64,000 bases of DNA. Source: an uncultured Phycisphaerales bacterium (GTDB lineage Bacteria; Planctomycetota; Phycisphaerae; Tepidisphaerales; Tepidisphaeraceae). Below the pieces are notes generated by a model. That model was not told the DNA's origin, ran no database searches, and worked only from the letters and a program-made list of their open reading frames with translations. Below, one piece after another: positions 37,513 to 62,095 of the stretch. The translations under genes and the position numbers were made by a program. Positions within the stretch are counted from its first letter, which is position 1. Every line of letters begins with the position of its first letter. The stretch is taken from assembly GCA_963755915.1 (NCBI GenBank), contig CAVWLP010000002.1, forward strand, positions 2,464,001-2,528,000, given 5' to 3'.

Positions 37513-37580
37513 CCTGGCGCCCTTGGCGTCTTGGCGGTTATAAAGATTTTTAACCGCCAAGACGCCAAGAGCGCCAAGAA
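37513..37580. repeat. CGCCAAG-family 9-mer inverted repeat (empty IS110 target)
   Basis: cctggcgcccttggcgtcttggcggtt ... aaccgccaagacgccaagagcgccaagaa. Confidence 0.8.
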
Positions 37581-55017: not shown

Positions 55018-55611
55018 AGCATTTTGGAGCCGGGCATTTTAGAAGCGGGACGGGAGCGGGTTTGTCGGATTGGCTGTTGAACCAGGGCACGTGGCTTGAA
55101 AGAATGTCGAAGACCCCCACCCCGGCCCTCCCCCGGAGTACCTGACGGCCCGACACTTTTCTAACGCGCTGGCCAAGGGGCGCTCGTCTAAAGACGAAAT
55201 GCAAATGCAATGCGGGAGGGGCGAGGGGGAACCGATATAGGGCCCCAAAAGTTTCCCCCTCGCCCCTCCCGCACCCTCCCCACTCCCCTTCCTTTTCCCC
55301 TCAACGCTCCCCCTAAAATGCGTGCACGACAGCATCCATGCAATCGCGTGCCCCAACGCCATCGCGGACCAGGTGCGCGAACCATTAGCGAAACGCCTCC
55401 GCATTTTGTCTTTCGGCTTGGACGGTTAGGGGAAGCCGGAAAGTGGTGGTGGGGGTGCGGGGGAGGCGGCGAAAACCGCTTGGGGCCTTATGGGTGTCAT
55501 GGGGCGCGCAAAACCGGCCAATTGAGGGCGCACCAAAACCGGCCATTTTGAGGCACAGGAGATTGGGTTATCGACCTTGGCTTTCGGCGGTTGCCGCAAG
55601 CCAATGGTGGG

Positions 55612-57411
55612 ATGGCCAATCAACTCAAGATGGCGGAAGTACAAGCAATTTTGGCACTTGCGCAGCGGCTGGTCCAATCGGAACATCGCCCGCCAACTCG
55701 GCGTTCACCGGGAGACCGTTGGACGCCACATCCGGTTGTCGGGCGGCGATCCTGCGGCGCCCGGATCGGATTCAAAACCGGCCAGCGCCCCTCGGCTCGA
55801 CGGTGCTCGCCGCAGGCGGCTCGACGGTGCTCGCCGCAGGCGGCTCGACGGTGCTCGCCGCAGGCGGCTCGACGGTGCTCGCCGCAGGCGGCTCGACGGT
55901 GCTCGCCGCAGGCGGCTCGACGGTGCTCGCCGCAGGCGGCTCGACGGTGCTCGCCGCAGGCGGCTCGACGGTGCTCGCCGCAGGCGGCTCGGAGAGCGCG
56001 CCCACCGGGTTATCCGGCGCGCCCATCGGGTCGGTCAGTACGGCATCGCCCTGGCGTGAGGTCATTGTTCAGAAGTTGGAAGCCGGGCTGACGGCCCAGC
56101 GGATTTATCAAGACATCTCCAGCGATCACGGCTATGCCGGCAGCTATTACAGCGTGCGCCGGTTCATCAAGAAGCTCTCGGCTGCCGCGCCGGCGCCCTT
56201 TCGCCGGATGGAATGCGAGCCGGGAGCCGAGGCGCAGGTGGACTTCGGCCGGGGTGCGCCCTGGTCGGTCCTGACGGCAAACGCAAAGCAACCTGGGTCT
56301 TCCGCATTGTGCTGAGCCACAGCCGCAAGGGGTACGCCGAGGCGGTGGAGCGGCAGACGACCGATGATTTTCTGCGTTGTCTGGAAAATGCCTTTACGCA
56401 CTTCGGCGGGATGCCGTCAGCGCTGGTGATCGACAATCTTCGCGCGGCGGTGACGCGGGCGGACTGGTTCGAGGCGGAGTTGTGTCCCAAGGTCCGGTCG
56501 TTCGCCGAACATTATGGAATCGCCATTCTGCCCACCAAGCCGTACACGCCGCGGCACAAGGGGAAGATCGAGCGGGGCATCGGCTATGTGAAGAGCAATG
56601 CTCTCAAAGGCCGGCAATTCGCCTCGCTCTCGGATCAGAACGCGCATCTGCTGACGTGGGAGAAGAGCGTGGCCGACACGCGCATCCACGGCACGACGCG
56701 GCGGCAGGTGAAGGAAGTCTTCGAGCAGGTAGAGAAGCCGGCACTGTTGGCTCTGCCGCCGGTGCGATTCGATCTTTTCACCGAGGCGTTGCGCAGTGTT
56801 CACCGCGACGGGCACGTGGAGATCAAGGGGGCGTACTATTCGGTCCCGCCGGAGTTTTTGGGCCAGCGGGTCTGGGCGCGGTGGGACGGCGCACGGTCCG
56901 GCTGTTCGATCAGAAGATGCGTGCGATCGCTCTGCACGCGCAGCGTCCGCCGGGCAGGTTCTCGACGCAAGACGCCCATATCCTGCCGGAGAAGATCAGC
57001 GGCATCGAGCGTGGAACGACCTGGCTTCTCCAGCGGATCGAATGCATCGGGCCGCACGCCACGCAGTGGGCGCAGTCAATGCTTCAGCATCGCGGCATCG
57101 AAGGCGTGCGCGTGTTGATGGGGCTGCTGTCGCTGGCCAATCAGCAGCCGCGACCGGCCGTGGAACGAGCCTGCGAGATTGCTCTGGGGCATGGCGCGTA
57201 TCACCTGCGCTCCCTGCGGCAGCTCATCGAACACCAAAACGGCGCGCCGGTTCAACAACACTTCGAGTTTGTTCAGGAACATCCAATCATCCGCGGACTG
57301 GCCGATTACGGACAGTTCGTACGCGACGCAATCACCCAAGCGGAGGCTTTGCCTGCCGCACAACCTTTACAGGCCTGCCCTGAGCAGAGCCGAAGGGAGT
57401 CCACCCCATGA
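55612..57411 (+). CDS. istA: IS21 transposase (frameshifted)
   Basis: HTH 'WSNR.IARQLGVHRETV', 'PG.EAQVDFG', 'DN..AAV', 'KGKIER', 'YSVP'. Confidence 0.92.
55793..55991 (+). repeat. Perfect 24-bp tandem repeat x8 (+7 bp) inside istA
   Basis: (CGGCTCGACGGTGCTCGCCGCAGG)8, encoding GSTVLAAG x8. Confidence 0.95.
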
Positions 57412-58298
57412 GACCTTCGTTGATGCAGACGCTCAAGCAACTTCGGCTTTCAGGTCTGGCGAGCAGCCTTGAAGTTCGCCTGAGCGAGGCGGCCGGCAAT
57501 CGGCTCGACCACAGTGAGTTTTTGGAACTGATCCTTCAGGATGAACTGAACGTCCGATCCAGCCGGCAGATCGGCCGGCGCGTCAAGGCGGCGATGTTCC
57601 GCGACACCAAAAACCTCGACGAGTTCGACTTCTCCTTCAACACCTCCATCAAACGCAAACAGATTCACGATCTGGCCGCCGGCCAGTTCATTCGTGACAA
57701 ACGTGACGTGCTCTTGCTGGGTCCGCCCGGCGTGGGCAAATCGTTTTTGGCCCAGGCCATCGGACACCAGGCGATCAAGAGCGGCTTGGTGGTCCTGTAC
57801 CGATCCATCTTCGACCTGGCCCGCGACTTTTTAGGCGACGAGGATCTGGGAGCCCAGGACAAGACGCTGGCCCGGTATCTCAAGCCTGATCTGCTTATCA
57901 TCGACGACATGGGAATGAAGCAGCTTCCGCGGCGCAGCGGCGAATGCCTGCTGGAGATCGTCATGCGCCGGCACGAGAACCGCTCGACGATGATGACCAG
58001 CAACCGTCCACTGGAGGACTGGGCCAAGCTGATCGGCGACGTGCCGGCGGCCACGGCCATTCTGGATCGGTTCCTGCAGCACGCCACGATCATCAACATC
58101 ACCGGCAAGAGCTACCGCCTTCGGCATGGGGGCCATTCGACTTCGCTCACGGCAGGCCAATCCGGGACACCGGAAAAGACAAATCCAAAAGGACGGCGGA
58201 GTACCGCCGGCGATGAAGGGTGCTCCCCCCCGGAAGACACCGTGACAGAGCCGCCGTTGTCTTCTGATGTGGGGGTATCCGCCGGCCAGACGGCGTGA
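57408..58298 (+). CDS. istB: IS21 helper ATPase
   Basis: 'FDFSF', GPPGVGKS, 'LLIIDD', 'TSNRP..DW', 'AILDR', 'G.SYR'. Confidence 0.96.
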   Translation: MRPSLMQTLKQLRLSGLASSLEVRLSEAAGNRLDHSEFLELILQDELNVRSSRQIGRRVKAAMFRDTKNLDEFDFSFNTSIKRKQIHDLAAGQFIRDKRDVLLLGPPGVGKSFLAQAIGHQAIKSGLVVLYRSIFDLARDFLGDEDLGAQDKTLARYLKPDLLIIDDMGMKQLPRRSGECLLEIVMRRHENRSTMMTSNRPLEDWAKLIGDVPAATAILDRFLQHATIINITGKSYRLRHGGHSTSLTAGQSGTPEKTNPKGRRSTAGDEGCSPPEDTVTEPPLSSDVGVSAGQTA

Positions 58299-58619
58299 AC
58301 GGGGACCAATAACTCAAGGAACAGTTGCGTCGGATAGAACGGATGCGGTATAGAATACGTCAGCACATTGGCCGGTTTTGAAGCGCCCCGCCCTGGCTGG
58401 TTTTGGGCGCCCCGTGACAATGGGGTTGTCGCCGCCTCCCCTGCATTGCATTTGCATTTGTCTTTAATAGAGCTGGCCACTTGGTCTCCGAACTCGAACA
58501 AAGTGTCGGGCGGTCAGCCCGGAGTACCAGGGGAGGGGGAAAAGGGGGACATGCGATTGGCCTGGCCGTTGAACTCCTCTGAAACTTGAAAGCTGGCGGG
58601 AAACAGTTCTATTTAAGCC

Positions 58620-59672
58620 ATGCCAATTCTGCCGGCCCTTCGGAAACGGCGCCCGCCGAGGTGGAGGGATTATTATACGCTCCTGTTTCTTTTCCTGTGC
58701 GCCGTGCTCCTTGGGCCGTGGTTTACGTTTTATGGGCTTTATGCCGATCACCGGGACCGCCCCAGCCTGCAGTGGCCCAAAGTTTCCGGCATGCTCGTTC
58801 AGGAACGGAAACGGTATAGCGTGGGTCGTACCTCCGACGAGATGGTCAATGTCAGCTACACGTATGCCGTCAATGGTCATCATTATGTGGGCCACCACAT
58901 TCCGGCCTGGAGCACACAATGGGACGCCTACGAAGACGACCGATCCATGGCGTTTGCAAACGCGCATCCGGTCGGCTCGGTGGTGGCAGTCTATTACGAC
59001 CCGGAACAACCGGACAATGCCGCGCTGCTGCCCGGACCGGACGTGGCGGGCAACCGCTTCTTCATGATTGGCGGCTGCGCCATTTTGGTTTGCGGGCTGT
59101 TTCTGGTAACGATGAACTTCAACAAGCTCGCTGCGATGAAGTCAGCGATTCAGGCAAGGGAGGCGAGGCATCGGACGGTCGGCCCGCACAAACACGGCGC
59201 TTTGCGGCACGGTTTTGCCAGCTATGAGCCCGCGTGCAAACGAAAGCTGAATATTTTCCCGGACCAGCAATGCCTGGATGAAGTCCTCGGTCATCGGGGC
59301 AAGCCGCTGCAGGACTGGAAGGCGGAAGACCGGATGATTGATGTCGCGGGGTGTGAATACCGGATTGTCAAAGAGCCCGGCAAAAAAGCCTATGACCTCA
59401 GTCCGACAGGCGAGAAGTGGACGTATGAACAATTGCTCGGCGTTGCCGAGGAGGATGAACGGGCGGCGAAGAAAAAACCCGAGGCGCTGCGTCAATTGCT
59501 GGATGAAGTTGGGGAGAAGGACCGGATGGGGGTGCTGATGAAGGCATTGGACGCGAAATCGGAGATGCCGCAGTGGTTCGAGGCGGCGTTTGTGGCTTTT
59601 CTGGTATTGTTTGCCCTTGGTTGTGCCGCCGTCGGCGTTGCCATTTTTGAATTGGTGACGAAATATTTTTAA
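58620..59672 (+). CDS. DUF3592-domain membrane protein
   Basis: 'WPKV.G', 'V.Y.Y.V.G..Y.G', 'G..V.VYYDP..P..A.L'; three TMs. Confidence 0.75.
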   Translation: MPILPALRKRRPPRWRDYYTLLFLFLCAVLLGPWFTFYGLYADHRDRPSLQWPKVSGMLVQERKRYSVGRTSDEMVNVSYTYAVNGHHYVGHHIPAWSTQWDAYEDDRSMAFANAHPVGSVVAVYYDPEQPDNAALLPGPDVAGNRFFMIGGCAILVCGLFLVTMNFNKLAAMKSAIQAREARHRTVGPHKHGALRHGFASYEPACKRKLNIFPDQQCLDEVLGHRGKPLQDWKAEDRMIDVAGCEYRIVKEPGKKAYDLSPTGEKWTYEQLLGVAEEDERAAKKKPEALRQLLDEVGEKDRMGVLMKALDAKSEMPQWFEAAFVAFLVLFALGCAAVGVAIFELVTKYF

Positions 59673-59792
59673 CCGCCAAGAAACTATGAAGCCGAGCCTT
59701 TCTCGGGACGTGAACGGGGTCAAAATGCCCCAAGTATGAACGAGCGTACCGCGTAGGTCGCTCAAACGTCTTTTTTGAGAAAGGACTCGGCA

Positions 59793-60836
59793 ATGCGAAT
59801 TCTCGCTTTGGACCTGGGAAAGAACAAGAGCGTTTTTGTGGATTATGTCACCGGCGGTGGAGAAAGAACGTTCGGCAAGATCGGCACCAATGCCCACGAG
59901 GTGCAAAAACTACTCGAGCGGGTGCGTCCGGATCGACTGGTCATCGAGGCCGGTCCGGCGGCAGGATGGGTTTGTGATCTGGCGGAGCGGAACAATGTTC
60001 CCGTCCAGGTGGCCAATGGCAACGATGAACGCTGGCGCTGGAAGACGGTGAAGGAGAAGAGTGATCGTAAAGACGCGCTGAAGATGGCGGCGATGTCGGA
60101 GATGGATTCGCTGCCGACGGTGCACGTGCCCAAGGCATCGGTTCGGCAGTGGCGTTCATTGATTGAATACAGACACGGCCTGGTGGATCGCCGCACGGCG
60201 CTCAAGAACTCGATCCGATCAATCTACGAGCGGCAGGGTTTGTATTTGCCCTCGGCGACCAAGGCGTGGACGAAAGCGCGACTGGAGGAAATGAGGAAGG
60301 AAGCAGCGGCCGCATCGGCGGAAGATCTGTGGCTGTTTCAGATCGGTTGTGAGGTGGCGCAACTGGAGCACCTGGAGAAGCAGATCGAAACTGTCGAAAG
60401 CAAGCTTCAGGAGTTGGGCCAGGCCAACAAAGCGGTGAAACGATTGCAGGAGGTGCCCGGCGTTGGTCCGCGGCTGAGCGAGGCGGTGGCGGTGATCATT
60501 GATGATCCCAGGCGATTCAAGAATGCACGTCAGGTGGGATGTTACGTGGGTCTGACGCCGCGGCGCTGGCAGAGCGGCGACAGCGATCGCCAGGGGCGGA
60601 TCAGCAAGGCAGGCAACGCGCTGCTGCGGGAGTTGCTGGTGGAGGTGGCGTGGCTGGGGGTTCATCGCAATACGTGGATGAAGGACGTGTACGAGAGGGT
60701 TCTACGTGACAGCGAGAAGCGCAAGAAGATCGCGATTGTTGCGGTAGCCAGGAGATTACTGGTGAAGCTGTGGGCGATGCTGCGGGACGGAACCCGATGG
60801 AGAGAACCCCAGCGATCGCTGACGGCGGCCACTTGA
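59793..60836 (+). CDS. IS110-family DEDD recombinase/transposase
   Basis: 'ALDLG', 'IEAG', 'KSDRKDA', 'VPGVG', 'YVGLTP...QSG', 'ISKAGN', 'A.VAVARRL'. Confidence 0.96.
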   Translation: MRILALDLGKNKSVFVDYVTGGGERTFGKIGTNAHEVQKLLERVRPDRLVIEAGPAAGWVCDLAERNNVPVQVANGNDERWRWKTVKEKSDRKDALKMAAMSEMDSLPTVHVPKASVRQWRSLIEYRHGLVDRRTALKNSIRSIYERQGLYLPSATKAWTKARLEEMRKEAAAASAEDLWLFQIGCEVAQLEHLEKQIETVESKLQELGQANKAVKRLQEVPGVGPRLSEAVAVIIDDPRRFKNARQVGCYVGLTPRRWQSGDSDRQGRISKAGNALLRELLVEVAWLGVHRNTWMKDVYERVLRDSEKRKKIAIVAVARRLLVKLWAMLRDGTRWREPQRSLTAAT

Positions 60837-60959
60837 AAATCGAAAAGGCGATGACTGTCCCGACAAGTCGGTACAGGCGATGGAGTATCTCCCCTCCGGA
60901 AGACACCGTGTCAGAAAGCCGTTGTCTTCTGTGCAGGGGATTGAGTAGAGTTGAAGTGA

Positions 60960-61140
60960 AGTGGAATTGACGCGTTCGTGCAGGTTGAATGAGCAAGGCC
61001 AGACCCCGGTTGGCGTCTTAAGCTTCAAAGCTTGCCGCTAAGAATAGGGCTGGCCATTTGTACAGTTGAATAGGCCCGCCGCCAGGCGAGAGCACTGAAT
61101 AGAAGGCTCACCCAATCGACCGCATGAGCGATCAACGCCC
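60960..61140 (+). ncRNA. Putative bridge/seek RNA of the IS1111-type element (boundaries approximate)
   Basis: Stem-internal loop-stem at 60997-61055 carrying TTGGCGTCTT and CCGCTAAG, which match both halves of the insertion target. Confidence 0.75.
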
Positions 61141-61315
61141 CTTGACAAGGCTCGGCTCATAGAAGACGCCAAGAGACTTCGATGAGCTCTCTTCGAGCCT
61201 GAGCCTCAGAGCCGAAGGCAGTCGAGCCGCGCCAAGAAATACAAATTGCTTATGGGTGAGGTTCCCCATTCGAATTTTTTCCCCCTGTGGCAGGCAATTT
61301 CAGGCGTCGGACAGA

Positions 61316-62095
61316 TCACCGCGATTCGGCGGGGAGAGTGTTGGTATGATCCAGGGCACCGAAGCGCCGATTGCGGGACGCAAACTCGGCGAGGGTCTTG
61401 TGGAATTCCTCGATATTGAAATCCGGCCAGAGGACGGGGCTCACGACAAGCTCGGCATAGCTGATCTGCCAGAGGAGGTAGTTGCTGACGCGCATTTCGC
61501 CCGCGGTGCGGATGAGCAAATCCGGATCGGGCATGCCGGCGGTGTAGAGATGGTCGCTGATGGTTTGCTCGCGGATGTCGCGCGGATCGATTTTCCGACC
61601 GCGGCTTTGGCGGCGATGGCACGGACGGCATCCGTGATCTCCGCGCGAGCCATAGTTGAGGGCGAGATTGAGTTGAAGGCCGTCATTATTGGCGGTTTCC
61701 GCCAAGGTCTGGTTCACCTGGTCGTTGACGAGATCGGGCAGATTCTCCAGACGGCCGATCTGCTTGAAGCGGATGTTGTTCTCCATCATCGTCGGCTGCT
61801 CCTGGCGGAGATAATCGACGTACATCTGCATGAGATAAGTGACTTCCGAGGCGGGGCGTTTCCAGTTTTCCAGGCTGAAGGAATAAAGCGTGAGGAAATC
61901 GGGAGCCCCATATTCCCGGCGGAGGCGGGAGCATTCGGTGACGAGGCCGCGGACGACCTTTGCCCCCTGTTGATGACCCTCGACGCGAGGCAGCCCGCGG
62001 GCGACGGCCCAGCGGCCGTTGCCGTCCATGATAATGGCAATGTGGCGCGGAATGCGCTGGAAGGGAAGATCGTCGAGCAGGGTCATTTGGGCCAT
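61316..62095 (-). CDS. uppS: Undecaprenyl diphosphate synthase (compensating frameshifts ~61590-61640)
   Basis: HIAIIMDGNGRWA, 'FSLENWKRP', 'ALNYG', 'DPDLLIRTAGEMRVSNYLLWQISYAE'. Confidence 0.96.
   Translation of the reverse strand: MAQMTLLDDLPFQRIPRHIAIIMDGNGRWAVARGLPRVEGHQQGAKVVRGLVTECSRLRREYGAPDFLTLYSFSLENWKRPASEVTYLMQMYVDYLRQEQPTMMENNIRFKQIGRLENLPDLVNDQVNQTLAETANNDGLQLNLALNYGSRGDHGCRPCHRRQSRGRKIDPRDIREQTISDHLYTAGMPDPDLLIRTAGEMRVSNYLLWQISYAELVVSPVLWPDFNIEEFHKTLAEFASRNRRFGALDHTNTLPAESR

Follow-up and report, generated by a model that had tools for sequence, protein, structure and literature searches.

The window analysed here is a stretch of 64,000 nucleotides (nt) from an uncultured Phycisphaerales bacterium (assembly GCA_963755915.1, contig CAVWLP010000002.1, positions 2,464,001 to 2,528,000 of the forward strand), and all coordinates below are counted from its first letter and refer to the + strand. 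At 59681-61165 it carries an insertion sequence (IS) of 1485 bp, one copy of the shared AG counted, which is most likely an active or recently active member of the IS1111 group of the IS110 family. Judging from its sequence, we are highly confident that this is a genuine RNA-guided element with a target loop of the kind described in the original prediction. We directly observed the anatomy of the element, its strict specificity for site and orientation, and covariation between the strands of its RNA stems, between guides and targets, and between a donor-matching segment (J2) and the right end. The element clearly adds a new example to the RNA-guided IS110/IS1111 elements already known, and the mechanism itself is not new.

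The target-binding module lies at 60997-61055, within the non-coding end downstream of the transposase gene, and was delimited by direct reading, by folding, and by covariation of its stems and of its guides with targets. Its outer stem, P1, is formed by 60997-61002 and 61004-61006 pairing with 61047-61055 and includes GGCCAG (60997-61002) opposite CTGGCC (61050-61055), and its inner hairpin, P2, pairs AAGCT (61020-61024) with AGCTT (61029-61033). The loop enclosed by these stems has a 5' side, TTGGCGTCTT, at 61010-61019 and a 3' side, CCGCTAAG, at 61035-61042. Specifically, the 5' guide (T; TTGGCGTCT, 61010-61018) complements the core AG plus ACGCCAA, and the 3' guide (B; CGCTAAG, 61036-61042) reproduces, apart from one U.G wobble, CGCCA of the left flank together with AG, and is followed by a conserved AAT. 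The guides are thus 9 nt and 7 nt long for a 14-bp target. When a 130-nt stretch of the non-coding end was shuffled by mononucleotides, 1 of 2000 shuffles gave a summed exact T and B match to the element's own target as high as the observed 13. The stems, both loop sides and the rejoining of the flanks to an empty repeat at 37552-37571, all named in the original prediction, are present.

That repeat is the uninterrupted target within the window, and by direct reading it forms the right arm of a palindrome that resembles a repetitive extragenic palindromic (REP) sequence, with three 9-mers and the sequence AACCGCCAAGACGCCAAGAG. The whole palindrome (37514-37580) has two arms of three 9-mers CGCCAAGAN flanking a short AT-rich loop, and it is common to three genomes of the genus. 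The insertion site is the first junction of the three tandem 9-mers in one arm. In the window the left flank of the element is ...TTAACCGCCAAG and its right flank is ACGCCAAGAG.... The genome holds nine full copies of it, each 1485 bp with at most one difference apiece; seven encode identical proteins, two differ by one residue, and the reading frames are intact. All nine lie between TAACCGCCAAG (left) and ACGCCAAGA (right) with a single orientation relative to the repeat, and their genomic contexts are all different. The empty 15-mer across the site, CCGCCAAGACGCCAA, occurs in 22 further copies beyond the occupied ones, in agreement with the earlier description of the target as a 9-mer-periodic, REP-like palindrome. 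Besides the nine copies, a tblastn search of the genome with the transposase gave six matches at 35% identity, covering the C-terminal part only.

The copies also bear on the possibility that the element is an immobile relic with a fossil RNA module, and that the nine copies spread through recombination or duplication rather than through RNA-guided transposition. In favour of such a relic, neither the circle junction nor the empty-site joint was seen when both were sought in the contigs of four runs, in which rare forms cannot show. However, the nine copies are near-identical, have intact frames and lie in differing contexts yet at the same position of the repeat, and sister elements in two other genomes repeat this pattern at sites of their own. 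We therefore regard a relic as improbable, and consider an RNA-guided element that moves or recently moved to be the better account of these copies.

The two other genomes (G001 and G011) are of the same genus as the window's own genome (G000), and their sister elements have the same ends. Both are Phycisphaerales (Planctomycetota), in line with the planctomycete origin proposed earlier. The G001 element shares 90% amino acid identity with that of the window, and all four of its copies sit one 9-mer further along the same repeat, with ...GACGCCAAG before the insertion point and AGCGCCAAGA after it. Where the window's element has TTGGCGTCT on the 5' loop side, the G001 element has TTGGCGCTCT; the 3' sides of the two are the same. 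The G011 element (73% amino acid identity) occupies the site CAGGCCAG followed by CCA(A/G)C (CAGGCC-AG-CCA) in 15 of 15 left flanks and 15 of 15 right flanks recovered. It carries the guides GTTGGCT and AGGCCAG, and its two stems, although different from those of the window, are still complementary. Across G000, G001 and G011, respectively, the unused 15-mer of site 1 occurs 22, 47 and 45 times, the 16-mer of site 2 occurs 19, 30 and 0 times, and the G011-type site occurs 2, 3 and 29 times. Since the sites of the other elements are left unused, site choice follows the loop and not availability.

The wider relatives comprised 29 loci from species genomes and 75 loci from metagenome contigs, at 44-91% identity, and those of stated origin are all from Phycisphaerae or Planctomycetota. 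Both flanks were available for 35 relatives, which gave 29 distinct targets. As match score we summed the longest exact match of the 5' side to core plus right flank and that of the 3' side to left flank plus core. The mean sum was 13.3 to the own target versus 8.2 over 772 foreign pairings, and the own target was the best or joint best for 20 of the 29 elements. When the assignment of targets to elements was permuted, the observed total of 387 (permuted mean 245.9, standard deviation 9.8, maximum 294) was reached by 0 of 20000 permutations. The loops therefore track their targets, which was the check by homologue alignment that the original prediction had proposed, and covariation over 29 distinct targets identifies the internal loop as the target-binding part. 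L073 and L158 (45% identity, module present) were left out of the target counts, L073 being 5'-truncated with a flank unlike its loops, and L125 and L128, with flanks too short, were left out of the match scoring. About 24 distant loci (L141, L145, L149, L151, L154-L157, L159-L172 and L174), without a match to the end or module patterns, lie outside the analysed set.

Position-wise counts were taken from 32 rows of a 40-sequence alignment, in which L132 and L142 were retained with a misparsed left flank, slightly lowering the counts. On the T side, the own target was matched at the core and the next seven positions in 18-27 of 32 sequences, and at the variable positions the fraction matched against the targets of other elements was about 0.3. 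On the B side, the own target was matched at the core and the five preceding positions in 23-31 of 32 sequences; for the targets of other elements the matched fraction was 0.27-0.46. U.G or G.T wobbles account for several of the single mismatches, among them the C-to-U change in the 3' guide of the window. On both sides the covariation drops to background one position further out. Because the covarying columns are bounded on both sides, the recognised target is 5 + 2 + 7 = 14 bp. Targets of 13-20 bp have been published for IS1111 elements (Table 1 of PMC13604230), so the guides, which had earlier been singled out as long, are of ordinary length for the group.

The RNA structure was obtained by folding the alignment of 40 sequences with RNAalifold, which recovered P1, P2 and a third hairpin, P3 (61077-61088), unprompted and left the guide columns unpaired. 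Compensatory changes were found in 13 of 16 pairs. In this structure 94.9% of cells are paired; its pairing value or covariation score was reached by 0 of 500 column shuffles, and slid controls gave 28-51%. For the P3 helix (columns 108-110 with 139-141), 99.1% of cells are paired and two of three pairs show compensatory changes. A test of a hand-drawn structure on six sequences agrees, that structure having been derived from the same six sequences. Single-sequence minimum-free-energy (MFE) folds of the non-coding ends of seven relatives were inconsistent, often with the guides paired, and were replaced by the alignment-based folding. Apart from this, the 5' arm of P1 in the window (60996-61002) contains AGGCCAG, which is the 3' guide and the left target half of the G011 element; this may be a coincidence, or a trace of exchange between guide and stem. 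In the MFD04463 relative (L069 and L075), P2 is much longer and two extra small GC-rich hairpins (GGAGGGCTTGCCCTCC-like) lie between the target module and J1 and inside P3, so the scaffold tolerates insertions there. A third MFD04463 copy, L076, ends prematurely within the non-coding end.

A tandem 9-mer as target makes the two loop sides of the window copy mutually complementary, and the MFE fold pairs the two guides. The window copy alone therefore cannot tell guides from a hairpin, and the relatives can. It could be argued that the supposed guides are a captured REP-like fragment or a terminator-like hairpin, that the protein alone reads the target, and that the match arises from the self-complementarity of the repeat. 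The pairing of TTGGCG with CGCTAA in the window's fold and a target made of tandem 9-mers within a palindrome are what such an explanation would lead one to expect. However, relatives with non-repetitive targets match their own flanks with loop sides that are not mutually complementary, as in the GWF2 relative (TTGCGAG / TTTGCAG) and in MFD04463 L075 (GCTACAG / GGACGAC). In addition, the position-wise covariation ends sharply at defined columns, and RNAalifold keeps the guide columns free. In the light of this covariation the fragment or hairpin appears largely refuted, and we consider it very improbable; the loop sides are better read as guides.

The covariation also defines the core. The two bases at 59679-59680, which close the left half of the target, are the left copy of AG. 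All 35 relatives with AAACTATG ends have AG at the close of the left flank, preceded by A (17 relatives), G (11), C (5) or T (2), and the 3' guide copies this variable base in 26 of 32 sequences. The right end closes in GAAG in all 29 distinct-target representatives. Because the base before AG varies and AG is constant, the shared core is the dinucleotide AG, and the 3-nt AAG core of the original prediction has to be given up. From these sequences, the additional A in the window reads as a coincidence of target and donor, and the base preceding AG as a programmable target position. In one subclade (L148, L150 and L152) the core is AT, and the change is seen together in the left flank of the target, the right end, the 3' target guide and J2.

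On the donor side, J2 (ATAGAAG, 61099-61105) repeats the 5 nt that precede the AG core at the right end together with the AG itself, a 5 + 2 layout as in the 3' target guide. The original prediction had recognised this motif as matching the donor end and placed it one position too early (61098-61104). J2 and the final 7 nt of the right end are identical in 51 of 51 parsed loci, with three variants (ATAGAAG in 43, ATAGGAG in 5 and ATAGGAT in 3); since the search patterns fixed the frame ATAG..A. in both places, the test rests on two variable positions and on two or three evolutionary events, not on 51. Upstream of P3 lies J1 (61062-61074), in which ACAGTT (61062-61067), a candidate left-end donor guide, is followed by a conserved GAATAGG. 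Its AGTT is complementary to AACT at positions 2-5 of the left end, in 28 loci. In the AT subclade the corresponding letters are GGCT against AGCC, exact in one locus and with one mismatch in two. Recognition of the left end by J1 is only partly supported by the sequences. By analogy with the target loop, a core-containing top-strand donor guide would be expected immediately 5' of P3; inspection by eye did not find one there. Many IS1111 orthologues seem to carry donor-binding nucleotides in a multiloop (Durrant et al., PMC11208160), and donor segments that flank P3 fit this remark. We tentatively suggest, as a possibility that we hold to be rather unlikely, that donor recognition in this Phycisphaerae lineage is asymmetric, the right end and core being read by a 7-nt segment like the 3' target guide and the left end by a short, core-skipping segment with a C.A mismatch, in a donor-loop geometry unlike that of IS621, and that target choice evolves when edits of a single guide shift the element stepwise along a periodic repeat.

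Besides the self-pairing of the guides in the window copy and the circle junction that was not seen, several points weigh against an RNA-guided element. The T guides of some relatives are weak or mismatched (four exact positions in U14994, poor matches in L138 and L146), and the flank of L069 fits its own guide poorly. The relatives are kin, so the counts exceed the number of independent events. J1 is short (4-6 nt), misses the core and has a recurrent adjacent C.A mismatch, and its covariation comes from one subclade of three loci, of which one is fully complementary. A Rfam scan of 59000-62000 with E values up to 10 gave chance-level matches only, none of them on the RNA module. The only RNA trace is one metatranscriptome contig of 205 nt, for which DNA carry-over is possible; it covers 60796-61000, is identical there to the end of the transposase gene and the first part of the non-coding end, and stops at the start of P1, short of the guides. 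This contig is insufficient to claim transcription or an RNA end.

Taking these points together with the covariation, we propose that the DEDD transposase would be guided by an RNA made from the 329 nt of non-coding sequence that follow its gene. The 5' loop side of this RNA, UUGGCGUCU, would pair with the top strand over the core AG and 7 nt of right flank, and the 3' loop side, CGCUAAG, with the bottom strand over 5 nt of left flank and AG, the loop being closed by P1 and P2. Of the donor segments that flank P3, J2 (AUAGAAG) would match the right end plus AG, and J1 (AGUU) positions 2-5 of the left end. Recombination at the AG common to target and donor would then give duplication-free insertion into one arm of the REP-like palindrome. 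By analogy with published elements (PMC11187229, PMC11208160), transcription of the non-coding end, probably jointly with that of the transposase gene, would yield an RNA that the transposase binds. On the same analogy, the element would be excised as a circle, with strand exchange at the core.

The protein and the ends agree with membership of the IS1111 group, as had been proposed. The single long open reading frame (59793-60836) encodes a transposase of 347 amino acids with DEDD RuvC-like and Transposase_20 domains, as identified with Pfam (PF01548, 40.6 bits with a cut-off of 29 and 2.9e-10; PF02371, 86.2 bits with a cut-off of 21.3 and 2e-24) and NCBIfam (NF033542, 'IS110 family RNA-guided transposase', 216.6 bits versus a cut-off of 140). 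Its C-terminal half is similar to ISCro4 (9t56) and IS621 (8wt6, E 1.3e-16), the PDB comparators being IS110-group proteins only. The G(L)-P----S/T-G motif described for the IS110 family (PMC11187229) is present as GLTPRRWQSG. E52, D91, D94, S261 and G262 are invariant among the four relatives compared, and catalytic residues in the transposase can be putatively assigned by analogy. As expected for the IS110 family, the flanks of all nine copies rejoin to an uninterrupted repeat with one AG, with no target duplication beyond the core.

The IS1111 group has subterminal inverted repeats of about 11-13 bp, with terminal extensions that measure 7 bp at the left end and 3 bp at the right end (PMC11187229). 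In the present element the left end (59681-59698) consists of the extension AAACT (59681-59685) and the left subterminal inverted repeat ATGAAGCCGAGCC (59686-59698), and is identical in the nine copies and in the relatives G001 and G011. The right end (61149-61165), established by direct reading and from the copies and relatives, consists of the right subterminal inverted repeat GGCTCGGCTCAT (61149-61160), the extension AGA (61161-61163) and the right AG core copy (61164-61165). The two repeats match at 12 positions, with one extra A on the left. The right end closes with ...CATAGAAG and the left end opens with AAACTATG.... With AG assigned to the left end, following Siddiquee et al. (PMC11187229), the left extension is AG plus AAACT (7 bp) and the right one is AGA (3 bp). 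The non-coding region is longer downstream (329 nt) than upstream (112 nt) of the gene, and the transposase length of 347 amino acids compares with an expected 330-350. By its sequence the element thus appears as an IS1111-group member in every respect that could be checked. The insertion interrupts no gene; on its upstream side a DUF3592 gene ends with its stop codon 8 nt from the IS, and on the other side there is a convergent undecaprenyl-diphosphate synthase gene.

Upstream of the transposase gene, folding indicates a structured 5' leader (59691-59791), whose helix joins the region of the left inverted repeat to the ribosome-binding region, GAGAAAGGACTCGGC, immediately 5' of the ATG. The fold has an MFE of -51.9 kcal/mol (z = -6.17), and 0 of 200 shuffles were equally stable. 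Since this helix pairs the left inverted repeat with the ribosome-binding region, there is a third, internal copy of the inverted-repeat motif beside the start codon. In the GWF2 relative, matching changes are seen on both strands of the helix. The predicted fold probably acts as a translational block on read-through transcripts. At the other end of the element, a conserved outward-facing TTGACA (61142-61147) lies 18 nt from the terminus, at the same distance in essentially all relatives, those of 44-50% identity included. It may be a candidate -35 box of a junction promoter that would arise on circularisation, and junction promoters of IS1111/IS110 elements have been described (PMC12288879). 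A convincing -10 box at 17±1 bp from TTGACA, sought by eye in the left end, was not found.

The proximal non-coding end holds a further hairpin (60890-60940, within 60872-60945), detected by BLAST, folding and pattern search, that is common to IS21-type elements of the same genome. It is about 65 nt long, reads CCCC..GGAAGACA..loop..TGTCTTC..GGGG preceded by GGCGATG, and occurs both after the IS1111 transposase gene and at the 3' end of istB (58205-58280). BLAST gave 52 matches to it in the genome, the nine IS1111 copies included, and a strict pattern gave 31 copies in G000, 1 in G020 and 0 in the other 39 relatives searched. Its fold z is about -2.1, the part scanned gave no Rfam family match, and a similar hairpin follows the transposase gene of the metagenome relative L145. 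It is possibly a common terminator, processing or stability module. The IS21-type element itself (55443-58300) has istA-like frames with rve and Mu-transposase C-terminal domains, the istA region apparently being split over two frames, and an istB reading frame at 57408-58298 (PF01695, 4.9e-66). A tandem repeat near 55.7-56.0 kb encodes about eight copies of GGSTVLAA.

The IS1111-type element clearly has RNA-level regulation, given its strongly structured 5' leader and a proximal hairpin shared with unrelated IS21-type elements. This leaves room for the idea that the downstream RNA mainly regulates the transposase, through stability, termination or antisense control, and that its complementarity to the target serves something other than the guiding of recombination. 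However, such a role leaves unexplained why the loop letters track the flanks of each relative and why J2 tracks the right end, and published IS1111 seekRNAs are needed for transposition (PMC11187229). We consider a mainly regulatory RNA to be extremely improbable compared with one that guides the transposase.

The closest published counterparts are ISEc11, ISPa11, ISKpn4 and ISPst6 (Siddiquee et al. 2024, PMC11187229), which likewise have subterminal inverted repeats, a long non-coding region downstream of the transposase gene and duplication-free insertion. In the IS1111 seekRNAs, as here, the match complementary to the top strand lies 5' of the match to the bottom strand, the two overlapping at the insertion point (PMC11187229). 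In addition, the natural retargeting of ISEc11 and ISXne4 by loop changes (PMC11187229) parallels that seen among G000, G001 and G011. The likeness to these four elements sets their published description beside what is read here from the DNA alone, and there are differences: the host is an uncultured Phycisphaerae bacterium rather than a proteobacterium, the target is a 9-mer-periodic palindrome, and the retargeting from G000 to G001 takes place in the 5' guide alone and moves the element by a single repeat unit.

The IS621 bridge RNA system (Durrant et al. 2024, PMC11208160; Hiraizumi et al. 2024, PMC11208158) resembles the present one in its DEDD recombinase, with similarity in the C-terminal part, in its REP target, and in its two-sided target loop about a shared core dinucleotide; the putative two-sided donor recognition of the present element, about the same core, would be a further likeness. 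It differs in that its RNA lies in the left end, its guide order is reversed and its core is CT instead of AG. Unlike in IS621, the donor segments here flank a hairpin in an apparent multiloop, and the left-end guide stops short of the core. REP targets are known for IS621 and also for ISPpu9 and ISPpu10 of Pseudomonas putida (PMC11208160, PMC12288879), and the latter two elements recombine, as is proposed for the present one, at an AG that is invariant at both ends (PMC12288879). ISPpu9, in contrast, belongs to the IS110 group, is without subterminal repeats and has its RNA upstream, and its extra small RNAs and modular circles were not seen here (PMC12288879).

A full-text literature search combining IS110, Planctomycetes and insertion sequence gave nothing on such elements among the papers listed, as judged from titles and abstract openings, which is a thin basis for novelty in this host group. 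The reading of guides and targets from raw sequence is shown to work, and mechanistic knowledge is left unchanged. The description as a candidate programmable recombinase, made earlier for the element in the window, can fairly be taken to apply to the whole family alike. For the IS1111 group, the finding extends RNA-guided elements to uncultured Planctomycetota (Phycisphaerae). It also provides a natural series of about 29 retargeted relatives on one conserved scaffold, in which the programmable positions (5 nt, the AG core and 7 nt) can be read, and this series is raw material for IS1111-type recombinases with known guide rules.

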